IMG/VR virus record: IMGVR_UViG_2537562223_000006
Reading direction: 5' to 3' (one strand)
Length of the DNA stretch: 46,570 nt
Origin: a virus
Taxonomy: Duplodnaviria; Heunggongvirae; Uroviricota; Caudoviricetes
Shown here: positions 2,672 through 22,415 of the stretch, piece by piece
Position numbering within the stretch: the stretch's first letter is position 1
How the letters are laid out: every line of letters starts with the position of its first letter
Notes under the pieces: model-generated
Databases searched by the model: none
What the model was told of the DNA's origin: nothing
What the model saw: only the letters and a program-made list of their open reading frames with translations
Translations under genes and position numbers: made by a program

Positions 2672-3840
<1,169 letters not shown>

Positions 3841-9173: not shown

Positions 9174-9554
9174 TCAGTCAGCCCAACCTGATTTCGAGTT
9201 TATTTGGGTTTCTGACATTGTGTATTTCTTAATCGTGTCATCGTTAAAAAGAATAGTAAGTTCTTTTTTCGTACCGTTCGTTCCATTATGGAATAATCCA
9301 TAGAATGGAATAAAAGTGGTGCCATTAACTTTTACTTTTGCAAAGGCGTACTTCCAGATCTCGTTTCCACTGTCAGTATATGAAACAGCATCAGGAGAAC
9401 CAAAGTAAGATTTAACCTCATTCTTGGTTGTTTTACCTTCCTGAAGTTTAGACTGGACACTAATTTCAGTTTCATTTTTGAGTTGCTGGTTGCCTGAAGA
9501 AGCACACCCAGCCAATACAGATGCCATCATGGCAGCGATTAGGATTTTTCTCAT
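9174..9554 (-). CDS. Lipoprotein (BamE/SmpA-OmlA-like fold suspected), AT-rich moron downstream of cI in the rexAB position
   Basis: Signal peptide with lipobox (MRKILIAAMMASVLAGCASS); 126 aa; same strand as cI and downstream of it; low GC by eye. Confidence 0.75.
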   Translation of the reverse strand: MRKILIAAMMASVLAGCASSGNQQLKNETEISVQSKLQEGKTTKNEVKSYFGSPDAVSYTDSGNEIWKYAFAKVKVNGTTFIPFYGLFHNGTNGTKKELTILFNDDTIKKYTMSETQINSKSGWAD

Positions 9555-10877: not shown

Positions 10878-11417
10878 ATGCAACCACTTACATACCAACA
10901 GACTAGCGGATTTATTCCGACTGCGGTGATAAATCGTTCTCAAACAAAACAAGCTCCAGGCCACGAAAAAATCCGTGATGCCGTCCGCGCCTGGTCGGCT
11001 GTAGATAATCAGGATGTCGTTGCCGCACTCATTGTGAATGAGTATCGGGAGCAGGGCGACGGCATCATCGATTTCCCTGATGATGTCAGCCGTGCACGCC
11101 AGAAGCTGTTCCGCTTCCTCGATAACAAATTCGATTCTGAAAAATACCGAAATAACGTGCGTGAACTGACCCCGGCAATTCTGGCGGTACTACCGCTGGA
11201 ATATCGCGGTTACCTGGTTGAGCAGGATAGCTTCATGACTCGGTTGGCTGAAATGGAAAAGGAACTCAGTGAGGCAAAACAGGCTGTCATTCTCAACGCA
11301 CCACGCCACCAGAAACTGAAGGAAATGAGTGAAGGTATTGTGTCGATGTTTCGTGTGGACCCGGATCTGGCTGGTCCATTAATGGCGATGGTGACCACCA
11401 TGCTGGGGGCAATATGA
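10878..11417 (+). CDS. Regulatory protein in the cII position (YdaT/CII-like family suspected)
   Basis: 179 aa; AGGAG RBS; motif LTPAILAVLPLEYRGYL resembles YdaT-like proteins by recall; sits between cro and O. Confidence 0.5.
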   Translation: MQPLTYQQTSGFIPTAVINRSQTKQAPGHEKIRDAVRAWSAVDNQDVVAALIVNEYREQGDGIIDFPDDVSRARQKLFRFLDNKFDSEKYRNNVRELTPAILAVLPLEYRGYLVEQDSFMTRLAEMEKELSEAKQAVILNAPRHQKLKEMSEGIVSMFRVDPDLAGPLMAMVTTMLGAI

Positions 11418-13118: not shown

Positions 13119-13703
13119 ATGAACAAGAAATACACGTTGATCTAAGCGGATCCGCCCTGGACGTACGAGGATAAATGCAATTCTGGTAAGCGTGGCACCG
13201 GGCATAAATACTTGGTTATGACGGTGCAGGATATCTGCTGGCTGCCAGTAAGGGAGCGGGTTGCAGAAAGCTGCCAGCTGGCGATGTGGTGGTTGCCAAC
13301 TCAACCGTTCGAGGCGATGAAAGTCGTCGATGCCTGGGGATTTCGCCTGATCACAATGAAAGGTTTCACTTGGGATAAAACCTACCCGAAGCAAACTGAC
13401 AAATCGGCGATGGGAATGGGACACCTGATCCGGGCGAACCGTGAAGATTGTCTTTTCGCGGTAAAGGGTAAGCGGGCACCACAGCAGGACGCCTCGATCA
13501 TCCAGCACTTCACCTCGCCGCGACATGAGCACTCACGTAAACCAGACTGCGTGCGTGAAATGCTGGTTCGGTTGCTGGGTAATCTTCCACGTATTGAGCT
13601 CTTTGCGCGTAAATCCTCCCACGGTTTCGACGTATGGGGAAACAAGTGTGATTCGCCAACCGTATCATTAAGCCCGGCCCGAGTTACTGATGTTTATTCT
13701 TAA
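13119..13703 (+). pseudogene. MT-A70-like N6-adenine DNA methyltransferase with in-frame TAA at codon 9 (13143-13145), just before the DPPW catalytic motif
   Basis: Frame reads MNKKYTLI*ADPPWTYEDKCNSGKRGTGHKYLVMTVQDICWLPV..; ATG 13119 is coupled to the P stop; the track ORF 13212-13703 is the remainder, starting after DPPW. Confidence 0.6.
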
Positions 13704-13914
13704 AAGAATTAACTGAAAAGAGGAAGGTTTGATGAGTTTTTTTACGTGAATTAACACGTAAGACTGCTGGTTATTAAACCATCACATTAGATATCTAAAA
13801 ATTGTGATCGGTATCTCCCTACTATAAAAAATAGTAGTTGAATATACGGTCTATACTTGAAATAAATAAAAGTATTCTTATTTTTTAGATGCTGTGTTGT
13901 GAAAAGGAATTTTT

Positions 13915-14946
13915 ATGTCCTCGAATATTTTACCTGATGAAAAAGTAATCAATAAAATTGCTGAAAAGTTGAGCGATTATAAATATCCTCCGGCTGAAGG
14001 TATGAACTCTGAACATGTCAGCAAATGGATTAAGCAATTTGCAGTGGAGGATAGACGATTTATCTTAGATGAAACGCTTTATCTACTTAATGCAGGTTAC
14101 CTGTCCGAAAGTCAATATCAACGAAAAATAAAAGCCATTGCAAGAAGTGAAAAGAACGCGAAATTGTTCAGATATGCAGGTTTTTTAGATATTCAAAAAA
14201 AAGGTTCTAGTCAGAAGGAATTGCTTAAATCTCTTTATGAAACAGTAGGGATCAAATTTAACATCGTTACTGAATCATCAACTCAAGATGAAGTAAATAA
14301 ATTTGATACATTTGTATATATTGATGATGTGTCGTTTTCAGGAGAAAAGGCCATCAAATCGATAAGTAATTTTGTTATAAAATTTAATTTAAGAGATATT
14401 AAAGTCAATGTATATTTTTTTTCATCTCATACGTTATCTGACTATAATATAAAAAGACGATTAGAATATATTTTTAAGGATAGAAATATTTTTGTACACG
14501 TGAAGAATGGTGGTATGCGTGAGGTTGAAAACCGAAAAAGTCGTTCTGCTCAATCAGGTGTTTTCTGGCCAAGGAAATATAGTGTAGATACTCCCGAGAA
14601 ATTCGAGGAGTGTGAGCTTTACAAAGGCGTATTCAGAGATGGATATGCCTCTTCTGATAGTTTTAGAAATGAAGCCTCAAGGGATCGTTTCGAATCTATC
14701 CTTACTAAAGTCGGCTTTAATATCTTGCTGCACAGGAAAACCCCTAGTGAGGTGCTCAAACCTCTAGGTTTTTCTACTTTTGACGGTTTGGGTTTTGGGG
14801 GAACAACATTTACTTATCGAAATTGCCCGAATAATGTGCCGCTGGCTTTTTGGTGGGGAGATTATGAACCAACAGGTGCTCCCGCATTGGACTGCTGGTA
14901 TCCACTAATGAAGCGGAATGGGTATAATGAGTGGTATGAGCTATAG
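13915..14946 (+). CDS. Hypothetical 343-aa protein with a possible phosphoribosyltransferase-like PRPP-binding motif (FVYIDDVSFSGEKA); AT-rich moron, gene 1 of a two-gene cassette
   Basis: Long ORF in low-GC DNA; AGGA RBS; motif is a partial match to the hhhhDD..(S/T)G.(S/T) PRTase signature; C-terminal half unassigned. Confidence 0.55.
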   Translation: MSSNILPDEKVINKIAEKLSDYKYPPAEGMNSEHVSKWIKQFAVEDRRFILDETLYLLNAGYLSESQYQRKIKAIARSEKNAKLFRYAGFLDIQKKGSSQKELLKSLYETVGIKFNIVTESSTQDEVNKFDTFVYIDDVSFSGEKAIKSISNFVIKFNLRDIKVNVYFFSSHTLSDYNIKRRLEYIFKDRNIFVHVKNGGMREVENRKSRSAQSGVFWPRKYSVDTPEKFEECELYKGVFRDGYASSDSFRNEASRDRFESILTKVGFNILLHRKTPSEVLKPLGFSTFDGLGFGGTTFTYRNCPNNVPLAFWWGDYEPTGAPALDCWYPLMKRNGYNEWYEL

Positions 14947-15547
14947 ATTATATCCGCTACAGAACACAGTTTCCTTCAGGAAAACCACCGAAAAATGGGG
15001 GGGGCTTTCCAACATGGCTAAAGGGTATCCATTGTTAATCAATGGGTTGCCTATTCAATCAAGTGAAATCCTTTACCAAGCATGCCGATATCCAGACTAT
15101 CCGGATATACAAAAGGCCATCATTACTCAAGGAAACCCCTATGAAGCCAAGCAGACCGCAAGATCGTTTGAATCCAAAACTCGCGCAGGATGGGATAAGA
15201 ATCGAGTTTCGATTATGAAGTGGTGTGTATGCGTAAAATTATGCCAGAACTGGGATACGTTCTTTGCGCTGTTAGACAGTACAGGCGACCATTTCATCGT
15301 GGAACACTCAGAGAAGGACCAATTCTGGGGTGCCAGTAAAGACCCAGAAGGTAACTATTATGGTATGAACGTATTAGGGCGAATTCTCATGGACGTGAGA
15401 GGGGTTGCTAGGAAAAAGGGGGCTGATGGGTTTGCAACAATACCATCGCTATCTTTGGACAAATTTTTTCTCCTAGGCGAGAGAATTAAAGATGTAACAT
15501 TTGTAGAGCCAACGCCTGGAGCAGGGCAAAGTTTATCCTTGTTTTAG
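14927..15547 (+). CDS. NADAR-family protein (YbiA-like, DUF1768; N-glycosidase / ADP-ribose-processing fold), gene 2 of the cassette
   Basis: GGLSNMAKGYPLLINGLPIQSSEILYQACRY and IVEHSEKDQFWGASKDPEGNYYGMNVLGRILMDVR parallel the recalled E. coli YbiA motifs; start overlaps the upstream gene stop. Confidence 0.75.
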   Translation: MSGMSYRLYPLQNTVSFRKTTEKWGGLSNMAKGYPLLINGLPIQSSEILYQACRYPDYPDIQKAIITQGNPYEAKQTARSFESKTRAGWDKNRVSIMKWCVCVKLCQNWDTFFALLDSTGDHFIVEHSEKDQFWGASKDPEGNYYGMNVLGRILMDVRGVARKKGADGFATIPSLSLDKFFLLGERIKDVTFVEPTPGAGQSLSLF

Positions 15548-15807
15548 CGTTCCATCTGGGGCATTTTCTTCCATAAATTAACTGGCGTACCTCCCTCGGC
15601 GTTTTTTTGTTGCCATAAAAGGTTTTTGATTTTCTATAATCAACCAGCCATAATCATGTCACCGGAGCCTGAACAACTCCGGTGACTTCTGCGCTAAACG
15701 GGGACGTTTATGCGCACATACAATCTAAACTCTCTTCTCCCGCCACAGATGCAGAAATGCACCTGCGATTTTTTGCATCCAGCGTTTGACCTCTGCGGAG
15801 GTGAAGC

Positions 15808-16263
15808 GTGAACCTCCCACAAGACGGCATCAAACTTCATCGCGGTAACTTCACCGCTATCGGTCGGCAGATCCAGCCTTATCTGGAGGAGGGCAAATGC
15901 TTTCGCATGGTGCTTAAACCGTGGCGTGAGAAACGCAGTCTTTCCCAGAATGCACTCAGCCACATGTGGTACAGCGAAATCAGTGAATACCTCATCAGCA
16001 GGGGTAAAACGTTCGCCACTCCAGCTTGGGTAAAAGATGCTCTCAAACACACATATCTCGGTTATGAAACCAAAGACCTGGTTGATGTCGTAACCGGTGA
16101 GATCACCACTATTCAGTCGTTACGCCATACCTCCGATCTTGATACCGGAGAGATGTATATCTTCCTGTGTAAGGTTGAAGCCTGGGCGGTGAATATTGGC
16201 TGCCACCTGACTATTCCGCAGAGCTGCGAGTTCCAGCTGCTCCGCGACAAGCAGGAGGCGTAA
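15808..16263 (+). CDS. ninB: NinB-family recombination protein (Orf-like)
   Basis: 151 aa, GTG start after GGAGG; ..[17 protein letters not shown].. parallels lambda NinB ..RSLDQNRKLWACLGDVS.. Confidence 0.8.
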
Positions 16264-17870: not shown

Positions 17871-18968
17871 TTAGAACTGGTAAACCAGACCTACAGCAAC
17901 GATGTCATCAGTGCTTACACCGAGTGCTTTAGTGAAGTCATTTTTGTCAAGCAGGTTGATTTTGTAATCAACGAAAGTAGACATATTTTTGTTGAAGTAA
18001 TAGGTTGCACCTACATCAACATATTTGACTAAGTCCTGATCGCCCCATACTCCAAGATCCTTACCTTTAGATTGCAGGTAAGCAACGGACGGACGCAGAC
18101 CGAAATCGAACTGATATTGTGCAACAGCTTCGAAGTTTTGGGCTTTATTAGCAACGAAGTGATCAGCAAATACAGTCATATTCTGGGTTTCAGAATAGGT
18201 AGTGGCCAGGTAAATGTTGTTAGCGTCATATTTCAGACCTGCGGCCCAAACTTCTGCATTTTTACCGGAAGCAAATACTTCAGGAAGAACTTTCCCTGCA
18301 TTAACTTGAGTGTCGGTACGATCAGATTTCGCATAAGTTGCACCGATACCGAATCCTTCGTATTCATAGGTAGCAGAGAAACCGAAGCCATCACCGTTAC
18401 CTTCAGTGTAGTTATCGAAATCGCTACGATCGTTTTTGCCTTGGTACTGAGCAGCAAAGTTCAGACCATCAACCAGACCAAAGAAGTCGTTGTTACGATA
18501 GGTTGCAACACCAGTGGTGCGACCAGTCATGAACACATCTGTTTGGGTCCAGGTATCGCCACCGAATTCTGGCAGAACGTCAGTCCACGCACCGATGTCG
18601 TATGCTACACCGTAGTTACGGCCGTAATCGATTGAGCCGTAGTCACCGAATTTCAGGCCTGCAAATGCAAGACGGGTTTTGTCTTTGGAGGAACCTTGAG
18701 ATTCAGCGCGGTTGCCTTTGAATTCATATTCCCACTGACCGAAACCAGTCAGTTGATCGTTGATTTGGGTTTCACCTTTGAAGCCAAGACGGGCATAAGT
18801 AGTATCACCATCATCTGCATCATTAGAGGAGAAGTAGTGCTTAGCATTAACTTTCCCGTACAGATCCAGCTTGTTACTGTCTTTATTATAAATTTCAGCT
18901 GCCTGAGCAGACATCGCCATCAGTACTGATGCAGCTACAGCAGAAATTGCCACTGTTAATTTTTTCAT
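17871..18968 (-). CDS. OmpC-family general porin (NmpC/Lc-like), lysogenic-conversion moron
   Basis: 365 aa; signal peptide [23 protein letters not shown]; C-terminal ..VGLVYQF; antisense to late transcription between Q and the lysis cassette. Confidence 0.93.
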
Positions 18969-21948: not shown

Positions 21949-22359
21949 TTAGTGCGGAAATATTTGTGTAGTGTTCTGAATGTTCTCAGTAAAGAGTAAT
22001 GAATTATCAAAGGTATAGTAATACCTTTTGTTTTCGTGGATATTTGTAATCCATCTGAAAACCCCTGCAGTAGCAAGATTTTTCCTGTATTCGTAAAATG
22101 ATAACTCTCCTGATTTGAATCCTTTTAAGGTGGCTTCTATAAGGCATTTATTTTTTGAAAATCTTACATTTACAACCTTACCCTGTCCTTTTATTAAAAC
22201 CGTATTATCGTTTTCAAGAACAAGATGAATATTCTCTGTAGCTAAATAGTAAATGTAATGTGAGACATTGTGACGTTTTAGTTCAGAATAAAACCAGTGA
22301 TAGTTTAAATTATTTCGCACTTTATCGAATATTTGTTTAAAAATGGCAACCTGAGCCAT
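21949..22359 (-). CDS. DUF1398-like protein (YbcV/YdfO-like), AT-rich
   Basis: 136 aa from ATG 22359 (GGAAGG RBS); [45 protein letters not shown]..; recalled as YbcV-like. Confidence 0.55.
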
Positions 22360-22415
22360 TGTAGTACCTTCCATGTGATATGAGGGGCGTAGTCTGCACG
22401 ATTATCTAAATTGCT

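Follow-up and report, generated by a model that had tools for sequence, protein, structure and literature searches.

The two-gene cassette at positions 13915..15547 of the window (the whole 46,570-nt stretch of DNA analyzed) is, with near certainty, the DS-32 anti-phage system, the same system in another strain. Gene 1 (DS-32A; 13915..14946, + strand) encodes a 343-aa PRTase-CE (phosphoribosyltransferase-like) protein, the presumed effector, and gene 2 (DS-32B; 14936..15547, + strand) encodes a 203-aa YbiA-type NADAR N-glycosidase, the presumed neutralizer. We put the probability at about 0.5 that the PRTase makes a toxic N-phosphoribosyl adduct from PRPP, possibly on DNA, and that the NADAR removes this adduct. 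The comparative sequence data are compatible with such a writer/eraser (toxin-antitoxin-like) mechanism, and they make the question of mechanism directly testable.

Gene 1 scored 312.8 bits against the NCBIfam equivalog NF053875 (DS32_1_antiphage; cut-off 250), with residues 12-334 covering the whole model, and gene 2 scored 257.4 bits against the equivalog NF053876 (DS32_2_antiphage; cut-off 240) over the full model length. The tested DS-32 clone, described by DeWeirdt et al. (DefensePredictor, bioRxiv 10.1101/2025.01.08.631726 [2025] and Science 2026 [PMC13092281]), has the same gene order (PRTase first), the same strand, and the same 1,633-bp span as the cassette described here. Its proteins, WP_000097610.1 and WP_032260665.1, match gene 1 at 338/343 residues (98.5% identity) and gene 2 at 202/203 residues (99.5% identity), and none of the six substitutions, five in DS-32A (P7, D8, L84, I155, and V164) and one in DS-32B (E191), falls on a conserved position. 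Some RefSeq records already label both proteins “anti-phage protein.” The cassette is another copy of a published, validated system that the NCBI annotation pipeline already names; the first-pass annotation had put the pair forward as a candidate novel system, a view that cannot stand beside the report of DeWeirdt et al. and the existence of NCBIfam equivalog HMMs for both proteins. Its proposal that the pair is a defense module is upheld by the published plaque assays on the 99% identical clone, and the phenotype is that of the clone, expressed from its native promoter. In part of Table S7 of DeWeirdt et al., cloned DS-32 restricted phages, with the strongest effect against the T5-like Markadamsvirinae phage Bas26; the –log10 EOP values there are 3.7 for Bas26, 1.6 for RB69, 0.9 for SECphi18, and 0.6 for T5, and the spectrum taken from this part of the table may be incomplete.

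ORF calling placed both ORFs on the + strand at the positions first proposed and returned the same 343-aa length for gene 1. For gene 2, which had been put at ~206 aa, the longest ORF (14918..15547) encodes 209 aa and offers in-frame alternative starts at 14918 and 14927, and the likely length is 203 aa. We consider ATG 14936 the likely start because MSYRLY is the N terminus in RefSeq as well as in the E. coli variant-2 homologue. With this choice of start, the end of gene 1 and the beginning of gene 2 overlap by 11 nt (14936..14946, + strand); the overlap would be 20 or 29 nt if the earlier ATGs were used. At other loci, the spacing between the PRTase and NADAR genes ranges from a 14-nt overlap to a 43-nt gap. 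Close linkage of the two genes is general, and overlap is not.

With near certainty, the cassette is an accessory insert in a lambdoid prophage, where it lies between ybcN and the replication gene P. GC content is 0.25-0.35 over 13600-14650 and 0.43-0.46 in the remainder of the cassette, compared to 0.50-0.59 in the flanks, so the low-GC block seen at first reading is real (0.25-0.46 in the cassette), as is the AT-rich region upstream of it (13704..13914, + strand; GC 0.31-0.35). This upstream region is the presumed promoter region and has a presumed ribosome binding site, AAAGGAA, before ATG 13915. It includes one weak sigma-70-like site (13857-13884). No promoter was assigned because promoter-like sites in the upstream DNA did not exceed the shuffled background (8 versus 6.0 ± 2.3 expected in shuffled sequence). 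In the clone of DeWeirdt et al., ≤200 bp of the native DNA ahead of gene 1 was included, and the system defended.

The locus had been described as lying between a broken methyltransferase and ninB. The left-hand neighbor is indeed an MT-A70 DNA methyltransferase pseudogene at the edge of the insert (13119..13703, + strand; Pfam MT-A70, 3.5e-18), with a stop at codon 9, directly ahead of the DPPW motif; elsewhere, the MT-A70 gene in the same prophage carries the RefSeq flag “internal stop,” and the pseudogene is missing from the E. coli variant-2 loci. The right-hand gene is ybcN (15808-16263), which occupies the position expected for ninB; ninB was rejected as its identity, the Pfam NinB score being 22.7 bits against a cut-off of 23.8. 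The conserved phage backbone, comprising the region 5′ of ybcN, a 33-aa ORF, and ybcN itself, resumes at 15624..16263 (+ strand), and in ~2,890 of 5,426 E. coli genomes, as well as in phage 82-like phages, the match starts only at about 15624. Sixty-two of the 5,426 complete E. coli genomes (1.1%) carry the cassette. No R-M genes adjoin the E. coli cassette, whose flanks are P, the MT-A70 pseudogene, and ybcN. In one strain, an IS interrupts gene 1 and not gene 2.

The motifs initially quoted for the two proteins are genuine and far beyond chance, with matches of gene 1 to Pfam PRTase-CE at 3e-38 and of gene 2 to Pfam NADAR at 6e-23. Gene 1 also matched PADLOC PRTase_III-A (1e-10, residues 11-334) and no other PADLOC family at E ≤ 1; searches of Pfam, PADLOC, and NCBIfam gave it no match to an ART or DarT, and Pfam gave no wHTH match. 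A sequence search against PDB chains gave only a chance-level match (E 0.16), and the fold of gene 1 was therefore taken from a predicted model (AF2; pLDDT, 92.8). Type I PRTases ranked top in both fold searches with this model, whose predicted core is a five-stranded parallel sheet superposable on solved PRTases; ShosT and the retron effectors were absent among the matches listed in both searches. The PRPP-binding loop, FVYIDDVSFSGEK (residues 133-145; 14311..14349, + strand), was located in the alignment of homologues and fits the type I PRTase pattern of four hydrophobic residues, two acidic residues, and a small-residue phosphate-binding turn. Across 75 homologues, D137 and D138 never vary, and F141 and G143 hardly do. 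The counterpart of this loop in the Retron-Eco11 effector is VVILTDTIGSGNQ, and mutation of that motif abolishes Retron-Eco11 defense (PMC12746101).

Near its C terminus, gene 1 carries a signature, G291-x13-P305-N-N-x-P309 ... W313-W314-G315 (14785..14862, + strand), that is common to retron type III-A PRTase effectors, in which the motif has been given as Gx14PNNxP (PMC12746101). This is the best-conserved part of the protein (40-69% identity versus 18-51% elsewhere) and is visible even as DNA similarity to Vibrio and Myxococcota loci; R302, N303, P305, N306, P309, L310, W313, W314, and G315 are invariant in the 75 homologues, and the PADLOC PRTase_III-A models match at this signature. From sequence and model, the predicted core of gene 1 is that of a type I PRTase, and the protein bears the retron type III-A effector signature. 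A search of the literature for the origin of the Pfam family found nothing under the name PRTase-CE, and the publications consulted on retron type III-A, ShosT, Ophion OpnC, and DS-32A report no acceptor substrate.

Gene 2 had been assigned to the NADAR family at the outset, and that assignment holds: it scored 82.4 bits against Pfam PF08719 (gathering score 35.1), it matched E. coli YbiA by sequence (phmmer, 2e-11), and a Foldseek search of the PDB with its AF2 model (pLDDT, 93.6) gave significant matches only to YbiA (2b3w; TM 0.74, normalized to target) and the P. nicotianae NADAR (8bau). The catalytic-site glutamate, E44 of the SSE motif (codon at 15065..15067, + strand), pairs with the SE of YbiA in the alignment, and a description of what the corresponding residue does is available (PMC11543638). 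NADAR subfamilies are set by a Glu, Asp, or His at a position in the last β-strand, with Asp in DarT1-linked NADARs and His in phage gp30.3 (PMC11125620). At this position gene 2 has E123 (IVEHS; codon at 15302..15304, + strand), which aligns with LVEHT of YbiA. Fifty homologues show no variation at E44, E123, D128, or W131. With both catalytic glutamates in place, gene 2 is predicted to be a NADAR of the YbiA type. The nearly invariant R51 stands where characterized NADARs have a phosphate-coordinating Lys (K50 in P. nicotianae and K95 in the E. coli C7 NADAR); as judged from the alignment, this Lys-to-Arg change would be conservative, and it counts against the explanation that we favor. Past the NADAR domain, residues 156-203 (15401..15544, + strand) form an extension ending in the peptide QSLSLF (15527-15544), and model confidence is good as far as residue 192, with disorder across 193-203. 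PRTase-linked NADARs share a tail of the type Q-x-x-[LM]-[FL], which also occurs in two aligned NADAR::HsdS fusions (L009 and L013); it is missing from YbiA and from a group of 198-aa NADARs, of which the one member inspected is an orphan. Between E. coli variants, the NADAR domain is 90% identical, compared to 45-51% for most of the PRTase.

The two genes do co-occur in other genomes. In all 79 assessable related loci, from diverse bacteria, the PRTase and NADAR genes are paired with the PRTase first, with no orphan PRTase among them, and 10 of 11 further loci inspected by hand also have the pair; the pairing is essentially obligate. At one locus, a contig encoding a NADAR-HhH protein (P0207) begins 133 nt upstream of the gene, and these 133 nt translate to the C terminus of a PRTase-CE. 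Fusion to a DNA-reading module is seen in 27 of the 79 partner NADARs (22 with HsdS, 4 with DUF1156, and 1 with HhH), and one of the four DUF1156 fusions also matches DNA-methylase families. The NADAR::HsdS fusions often have hsdM upstream and hsdR downstream, and the pair lies inside hsdM...hsdR in roughly one-quarter to one-third of the related loci. PRTase-CE domains are likewise found in fusions, one with an HRDC domain, others with sensor-like LRR and FGE-sulfatase domains, and one (P0322) in a single polypeptide with a NADAR domain. Related pairs occur in mobile or defense-island contexts, with GmrSD, RES, KwaB, Schlafen, and R-M genes nearby.

Two large phages, Dolichospermum phage Dfl-JY45 (XAI97231.1) and an uncultured phage (LR745208.1, 156932-157486), carry orphan NADARs of the DS-32B clade, as does a run of small genes on one strand that resembles a portion of a mobile element; a 198-aa orphan NADAR lies at locus L014. 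DNA and protein searches of 50,697 phage records revealed no PRTase-CE/DS-32A homologue, and we accordingly abandoned the notion of its circulation on sequenced virions. A full-length DS-32A family is present in PHROGs, presumably from prophage-derived entries. The use of orphan antitoxins as counter-defense is a described pattern (PMC11825919), which phage-borne NADARs lacking a PRTase would match by analogy. The HsdS and other DNA-module fusions, the PRTase-NADAR fusion, the orphan NADARs, and the conserved C-terminal peptide go beyond the DS-32 paper.

In the writer/eraser mechanism that we favor, DS-32A would be the effector, a type I PRTase of a “conflict-effector” clade that also supplies the retron type III-A effectors. 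It would move the 5-phosphoribosyl group from PRPP onto a cellular or phage target via an N-glycosidic bond, and the resulting adduct would block replication or growth. DS-32B would restrain DS-32A in uninfected cells by hydrolyzing the N-glycosidic bond of the adduct, and its conserved C-terminal peptide may dock on the PRTase. Phages listed as sensitive in the part of Table S7 used here (T5-like Bas26 and, more weakly, RB69) would shift the balance toward modification. On the comparative data, a nucleobase in DNA would be the most likely target, with a nucleotide or free base as the alternative. The first-pass annotation had put forward this kind of mechanism, and the DS-32 authors suggest the same writer/eraser idea under the term “TA partner swapping” (DeWeirdt et al.).

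The role of effector is assigned to gene 1 because of its PRTase fold, PRPP loop, retron-effector signature, and PADLOC PRTase_III-A match, because PRTase-CE is fused to sensor-like domains, and because the PRTase is the toxic arm of Retron-Eco11, where its activation lowers PRPP by about 50% (PMC12746101). Gene 2 is read as the neutralizer because its catalytic residues are invariant, its pairing with the PRTase is obligate, orphan NADARs occur in phages and PRTase-CE is absent from the phage records searched, and NADARs are antitoxins elsewhere: they are proven antitoxins of DarT1 and YarT, YbiA cleaves N-glycosidic bonds, and NADAR chemistry acts on ADP-ribosyl-guanine and phosphoribosylamino-pyrimidines (PMC11543638, PMC11125620). 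Indirectly, the lack of an orphan PRTase in 79 loci, the orphan NADARs, and the strain with an IS in gene 1 but not gene 2 would also fit toxicity of gene 1 and its neutralization by gene 2. DNA is suggested as the target by the HsdS, DUF1156, and HhH fusions, the hsdM and hsdR neighbors, the HRDC fusion, and the phenotype of ShosT, which binds PRPP, showed neither binding nor PRTase activity with the common purines tested, and gives a DNA-damage phenotype (PMC11961720, PMC12961424). Against a DNA target, the HsdS fusion could serve regulation, as a tether to the restriction complex, rather than substrate targeting, and the E. coli NADAR has no recognizable DNA-binding domain. By analogy, a nucleic-acid adduct is also disfavored by the outcome measured in Retron-Eco11, namely PRPP depletion.

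That outcome would be expected if the two enzymes instead cooperated, the PRTase joining PRPP to a base or nucleotide and the NADAR cleaving the product to base and ribose 5-phosphate, so that the acceptor is recycled, PRPP is destroyed catalytically, and the phage is starved of nucleotides. We regard such a cycle as unlikely, although several observations speak for it. The P0322 fusion would suit two enzymatic steps in cooperation no less than it suits a toxin-antitoxin pair; conservation extends to both active sites, and the genes are co-translated or tightly linked and always together; the ShosT PRTase is coupled to a pyrophosphatase, which pulls the reaction forward (PMC11961720, PMC12961424); the PRPP drop of about 50% was measured on activation of the related Retron-Eco11 PRTase (PMC12746101); and known YbiA substrates are small-molecule phosphoribosyl compounds (PMC11543638, PMC11125620). 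The cycle leaves unexplained the HsdS, DNA-methylase, and HhH fusions in one-third of NADAR partners and the orphan NADARs in phages and in the array resembling a mobile element. It also requires a separate off-switch in uninfected cells, and the retron PRTase effectors function without a NADAR (PMC12746101). The fusions to HsdS would instead be at the center of a scheme in which the NADAR guards a restriction or DNA-surveillance complex, using its C-terminal peptide to bind the PRTase and keep it inactive, with reversal of the modification secondary. In restriction-embedded forms, this hold would be tied to the integrity of the type I R-M complex, and the PRTase would be set free by phage anti-restriction factors or by other triggers, as with PrrC-EcoprrI. 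The operon hsdM - PRTase-CE - NADAR::hsdS - hsdR recurs, one example being Myxococcota JAKLKB010000060.1; the tail is conserved in linked NADARs and in the two aligned HsdS fusions, is disordered in the monomer model, and is missing from the 198-aa group with its one inspected orphan; and DarG likewise binds DarT directly (PMC11125620). The NADAR catalytic residues are nevertheless invariant across the family, so catalysis matters, and the E. coli cassette has no adjoining R-M genes; we think this scheme quite improbable as the primary mechanism.

The roles might also be reversed: the NADAR would then be the N-glycosidase effector, acting on nucleotides or nucleic acids, and the PRTase-like protein would be a sensor or regulator without transferase activity. 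N-glycosidase effectors occur in other defense systems, which we count in favor of this reading, and the NADAR is far better conserved than the PRTase (90% for the domain versus 45-51% between E. coli variants). ShosT, too, lacked transferase activity on the common purines tested (PMC11961720, PMC12961424). The PRPP-loop aspartates and clade signature of gene 1 are, however, invariant; in retrons, this PRTase clade supplies the catalytic toxic arm, and PRPP-motif mutants there lose defense (PMC12746101); NADARs are the antitoxins in both characterized pairs (PMC11125620); and phage-borne orphan NADARs would harm their own phage. Reversed roles are accordingly a poor prospect. Poorer still is a reading of the genes as ordinary metabolic or phage-benefit cargo, for nucleotide salvage and riboflavin damage control, with no part in conflict. 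In its favor, YbiA has a housekeeping role as an N-glycosidase and type I PRTases serve in salvage, but a defense phenotype is published for the 99% identical clone, the genes are low-GC, accessory, and limited to 62 of 5,426 complete E. coli genomes, and relatives sit beside GmrSD, RES, KwaB, Schlafen, and R-M genes; we give this reading hardly any credence.

The writer/eraser mechanism can be extended to the claim that DS-32A and its family of 1,244 clusters are DNA or RNA base phosphoribosyltransferases (acting, for example, on the guanine exocyclic amine), that the NADAR is a dedicated eraser, fused to HsdS or DNA methylase in ~1/3 of lineages, and that orphan phage erasers act in counter-defense. 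We offer this extension tentatively and consider it rather doubtful as a whole. If it is true, a phosphoribosylated nucleobase would be a nucleic-acid modification not described before, and an eraser fused to HsdS or DNA methylase would direct erasure to particular DNA or tie it to the integrity of the restriction complex. A DNA-base product would represent a new way to couple an abortive effector to type I restriction. Of the defense PRTases of retron type III-A, ShosT, Ophion OpnC, and DS-32, only that of DS-32 is paired with an enzyme whose own reaction, N-glycosidic bond hydrolysis, hints at the product.

Several known systems share parts of this arrangement. The retron type III-A effectors, as in Retron-Eco11, belong to the same PRTase clade and have the same PRPP loop and G-x13/14-PNNxP signature as gene 1, and in the parts of the published spectra used here, both Retron-Eco11 and DS-32 defend against T5-like and T-even-like phages (PMC12746101). 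In the retrons the partner is RT-msDNA, whereas DS-32A has a NADAR enzyme in that place; comparison of ORFs and Pfam matches, including the flanking genes, noted no reverse transcriptase, ncRNA/msDNA, or winged-helix domain in the window, the ncRNA part of this comparison resting on annotation. Retron-Eco11 is triggered by the helicases D10/UvsW. In DarT1-NADAR (DarTG1) and YarT-YbiA, a NADAR likewise adjoins an enzyme that makes N-glycosidic ribosyl adducts, and the NADAR antitoxin hydrolyzes guanine-N2-ADP-ribose on DNA (PMC11543638, PMC11125620). The catalytic residues of DS-32B are the same as in these NADARs. However, DarT1 and YarT are NAD+-using ADP-ribosyltransferases, whereas DS-32A is a predicted PRPP-using PRTase; DS-32B has the YbiA-type Glu where DarT1-linked NADARs have Asp (PMC11125620); and DS-32B has a C-terminal extension and tail, in contrast to the N-terminal extension of DarT1-linked NADARs (PMC11543638). 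A DarTG reading was rejected, as ART features are missing from gene 1 and the partner NADAR belongs to the Glu type (YbiA) rather than the Asp type (DarT1-linked). ShosTA is also a two-gene anti-phage system with a PRTase toxin, the PRPP-binding ShosT (PMC11961720, PMC12961424). It differs in that the toxin bears a pyrophosphatase domain at its N terminus and the antitoxin, ShosA, is a DprA-like DNA-binding protein, whereas in DS-32 the partner is a NADAR and gene 1 matches only PRTase_III-A. YbiA (PDB 2b3w), an N-glycosidase acting on riboflavin intermediates, is closest to gene 2 in solved structure and in sequence and belongs to the same Glu-type subfamily, but it lacks the 48-residue C-terminal extension and tail of DS-32B and is chromosomal, with no PRTase-CE gene as a partner. 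PrrC is a suicide effector, an anticodon nuclease, that is embedded in and silenced by the type I R-M system EcoprrI. Those related PRTase-NADAR pairs that lie inside hsdM...hsdR occupy the position of PrrC, although the effector chemistry differs (PRTase versus anticodon nuclease) and the NADAR there is covalently fused to HsdS.

The first-pass annotation had read this locus as a phosphoribosyltransferase (PRTase)-like gene followed by a NADAR gene and had proposed a defence module of a kind not previously described. The domain reading was correct: the Pfam matches are PRTase-CE for gene 1 (3e-38) and NADAR for gene 2 (6e-23). The claim to novelty did not hold: both proteins are those of DS-32 and pass the corresponding NCBIfam equivalog models, DS32_1_antiphage for gene 1 (312.8 bits vs. 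250) and DS32_2_antiphage for gene 2 (257.4 bits vs. 240). Compared to the cloned DS-32 proteins in the published supplement, gene 1 is identical at 338 of 343 residues and gene 2 at 202 of 203, the window pair and the clone span the same 1,633 bp, and the six substitutions all lie outside the conserved positions. On these sequence comparisons, we identify the window pair as DS-32 (gene 1, DS-32A; gene 2, DS-32B), an already known system. DS-32 is among the systems validated by DeWeirdt et al. (DefensePredictor; bioRxiv 2025, Science 2026), who describe a PRTase plus a NADAR protein, possibly a case of toxin-antitoxin partner swapping when set against DarTG (PMC13092281). Their clone was carried on a low-copy plasmid in MG1655 with ≤200 bp of native upstream DNA. 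The Table S7 entries for four phages give –log10 EOP values of 3.7 for Bas26 (a T5-like Markadamsvirinae phage), 1.6 for RB69, 0.9 for SECphi18, and 0.6 for T5, and smaller plaques are recorded for these four alike (PMC13092281). The guess of a defence function was therefore right, insofar as a near-identical clone reduced phage plating.

The window carries a lambdoid prophage, with a ybhC-like pectinesterase ORF and a lambda-type integrase gene at its left end, genes for a cI-like repressor, YdaT, O, and P between the integrase and the cassette, and ybcN, ninE, ybcO, rusA, Q, and a porin gene to the right of the cassette. Our analysis confirmed the two plus-strand ORFs where they had been placed, between P and ybcN, with gene 1 at 13915-14946 (343 aa) and the longest ORF for gene 2 at 14918-15547 (209 aa). 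RefSeq and a second E. coli variant both begin gene 2 at MSYRLY, so its probable start is 14936; the product is then 203 aa long, and the gene overlaps gene 1 by 11 nt. GC content is 0.25-0.35 across 13600-14650, 0.43-0.46 in the remaining cassette, and 0.50-0.59 in the flanks. Upstream of the cassette is a broken MT-A70 family DNA methyltransferase gene (13119-13703), with a stop at codon 9, shortly before the DPPW motif; RefSeq flags the same MT-A70 "internal stop" in the two other inspected annotated genomes with this cassette. The downstream gene, ybcN, is a marginal NinB relative (22.7 bits vs. a cut-off of 23.8).

Several other prophage genes were recorded. The left arm contains, at 3001-3840, an ORF for an IS3-family transposase (rve integrase core, 1e-31), and the prophage may therefore be damaged there. 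Between the Q antiterminator gene and the lysis genes, in opposite orientation, is a full-length OmpC/NmpC-type porin gene (17871-18968, minus strand; Porin_1, 1e-156), cargo of a type known from lambdoid phages. A YdaT toxin-domain protein (10878-11417) is encoded beside the replication genes, a lipoprotein-like small ORF (9174-9554, minus strand; sub-threshold BamE match) adjoins the repressor gene, and a DUF1398 protein (21949-22374, minus strand) is a further accessory gene.

The cassette is present at ≥99% identity in 19 of 5,426 complete E. coli genomes, and a variant ~77% identical at the DNA level occurs in 43 further genomes of this set. The variant is without the methylase pseudogene, and its genes are 2 nt apart, not overlapping. 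In all three inspected E. coli genomes, the pair lies after P and before ybcN; from ~15624 onward, the backbone again resembles thousands of genomes as well as phage 82-like phages. DNA and protein searches of 50,697 records found no gene 1 homologue in any deposited phage genome. In E. coli 23CRST001 (NZ_AP045758.1; locus L018, 16212-18581), whose allele is 100% identical to the window, ISVsa5 (IS4-like) splits the PRTase gene near codon 53 and the NADAR gene is intact, a single case that fits a costly or toxic gene 1.

PRTase-CE was followed directly by NADAR in 10 of 11 hand-inspected loci (Serratia, Klebsiella, Vibrio, Enterobacter, Myxococcota, and metagenomes). A species scan with one genome per species covered 80 loci from many phyla, and a NADAR ORF was immediately downstream on the same strand in 79 of them; in the single exception, only 84 nt of contig remained. 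We conclude that the pairing is essentially obligate. The NADAR is far better conserved than the PRTase; between the E. coli variants, the NADAR domain is 90% identical, vs. 45-51% for most of the PRTase.

The structural model of gene 1 has a PRTase fold with a PRPP loop. Conservation in gene 1 covers D137 and D138, the aspartates of the PRPP loop, and a C-terminal block, R302-N-C-P-N-N-x-P-L-x-x-W-W-G, and both elements have been described for retron type III-A PRTase effectors (PMC12746101). In Retron-Eco11, mutation of the PRPP loop abolishes defence, and activation cuts PRPP by about half (PMC12746101). Based on the loop, the C-terminal block, and a match to the PADLOC PRTase_III-A model (1e-10), we place gene 1 in the clade of effector PRTases that retrons use. 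One stretch of gene 1 (14780-14862, 83 nt) displays ~80% DNA identity with Vibrio loci (83 nt aligned) and with a Myxococcota locus (51 nt aligned). Since this stretch encodes the invariant RNCPNNxPLAFWWG block, we attribute the similarity to extreme conservation of the protein and not to recent transfer. When 1.84 billion representative proteins were searched with a profile, 1,244 clusters of the gene 1 family were recovered. Among the homologues P0259, P0345, and P0348, LRR or FGE-sulfatase domains are found at the N terminus of some PRTase-CE proteins and an HRDC domain at the C terminus of one, the pattern expected if an effector module is coupled to sensors. In P0322 (540 aa), PRTase-CE and NADAR domains occupy a single chain.

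The closest solved structure to gene 2 was E. coli YbiA (phmmer 2e-11; Foldseek TM 0.74) and the second structural match was the P. nicotianae NADAR bound to ADP-ribose; phmmer and Foldseek gave no significant structure match beyond these two. E44, E123, D128, and W131, which are important in NADARs, are present and invariant, and an Arg replaces the phosphate-binding Lys of NADARs. Gene 2 is a NADAR with its active site intact. A 48-residue extension follows the NADAR domain; the model is confident to residue 192, and the terminal peptide QSLSLF (15527-15544) is disordered in the monomer model. Similar tails (QISLL, TMELF, SLFDV, and others) end most PRTase-linked NADARs, with a short hydrophobic consensus Q-x-x-[LM]-[FL], sometimes then D-V (the window plus homologues P0121-P0232), and the tail is kept in both aligned NADAR::HsdS fusions (L009 and L013). 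In the alignment, the peptide is absent from YbiA and from a 198-aa NADAR group, the one inspected member of which is an orphan. The NADAR may dock on the PRTase through this motif. The ybiA gene of E. coli K-12 shares an operon under LexA control with dinG and ybiB, and YbiB is a predicted DNA-binding, PRTase-like protein (PMC11125620); ybiA-ybiB offers a lead to a second, unrelated NADAR beside a PRTase-like gene, in a DNA-damage context.

At least 100 residues lie beyond the NADAR domain in 29 of 79 partners. Of these, 22 carry a type I restriction specificity subunit (Methylase_S) there, four carry DUF1156, with one of the four also matching DNA-methylase families, and one carries a helix-hairpin-helix (HhH) domain (HHH_3, 70 bits), the fused NADAR being preceded by a PRTase-CE C-terminus (DUF1156 or HhH fusions: L043, L085, L098, and one further locus; L017, a TARA scaffold; P0207). 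Pfam counts were per family; judged by extension lengths of ~475-565 aa, the HsdS-fused loci are probably L009 (1698-9020), L013, L029, L031, L055-L059, L062, L064, L067, L072, L073, L077, L080, L082-L084, L086, L087, L090, L092, L094, L095, and L097. Of the 52 loci with an upstream same-strand ORF of ≥150 aa, 17 encode an HsdM methylase (N6_Mtase) as the immediate upstream neighbour, and an HsdR N-terminus (HSDR_N) lies downstream in at least 10 loci. Together with the HsdS fusions, these neighbours define a recurrent operon, hsdM - PRTase-CE - NADAR::hsdS - hsdR; about a quarter to a third of the loci sampled at species level have the DS-32-type pair inside such a type I restriction operon.

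Orphan NADARs of the DS-32B clade, scoring 208-281 bits on the family profile with catalytic motifs intact, were found in Dolichospermum phage Dfl-JY45 (XAI97231.1; L099, 2483-3121), in uncultured phage LR745208.1 (L100, 2447-3088), and at L014 (3501-4097), with no PRTase-CE within 2.5-3.5 kb on each side. The phages are a 209-kb cyanophage and a 485-kb uncultured phage. Around the L014 gene, small genes are arrayed on one strand, among them ThiF, DUF2958, and a group II intron RT, and the array resembles a portion of a mobile element. The orphans are candidate counter-defence genes. The DNA-module fusions, the hsdM/hsdR embedding, and the orphan NADARs are absent from the DS-32 paper's account, and such family-wide features supply concrete experiments on DS-32 mechanism.

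Type I PRTases form N-glycosidic ribose-5-phosphate bonds from PRPP, and the riboflavin-pathway intermediates used by YbiA are phosphoribosylamino-pyrimidines. YbiA cleaves N-glycosidic bonds of these intermediates, and in DNA, NADARs act on guanine N2, hydrolysing its N-glycosidic bonds to ribose (PMC11125620, PMC11543638); NADARs are also the antitoxins of DarT1 and YarT (PMC11125620). We propose that DS-32A would be the toxic arm, making an N-phosphoribosyl adduct that DS-32B would strip, perhaps also docking on DS-32A via its tail, and that infection would tip the balance toward modification. The most attractive hypothesis for the target is a nucleobase in DNA, given the DNA-module fusions, the HRDC fusion, and the precedent of ShosT, which has a DNA-damage phenotype and no acceptor among tested purines (PMC11961720, PMC12961424). 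In the chief alternative, DS-32A and DS-32B would jointly burn PRPP in a cooperative cycle; the PRPP drop with Retron-Eco11 and the single-chain PRTase-CE/NADAR fusion fit such a cycle, but it leaves the HsdS fusions and the orphan phage NADARs unexplained. As a third option, the NADAR may tether the PRTase to a restriction complex in a guard arrangement, which is compatible with enzymatic reversal.

Gene 1 shares its PRTase clade with retron type III-A but is without the RT, ncRNA, and winged-helix domain. Gene 2 is assigned by E123, under the subfamily criterion of PMC11125620, to the YbiA subfamily (Glu), whereas DarT1-linked NADARs belong to the Asp-type subfamily.
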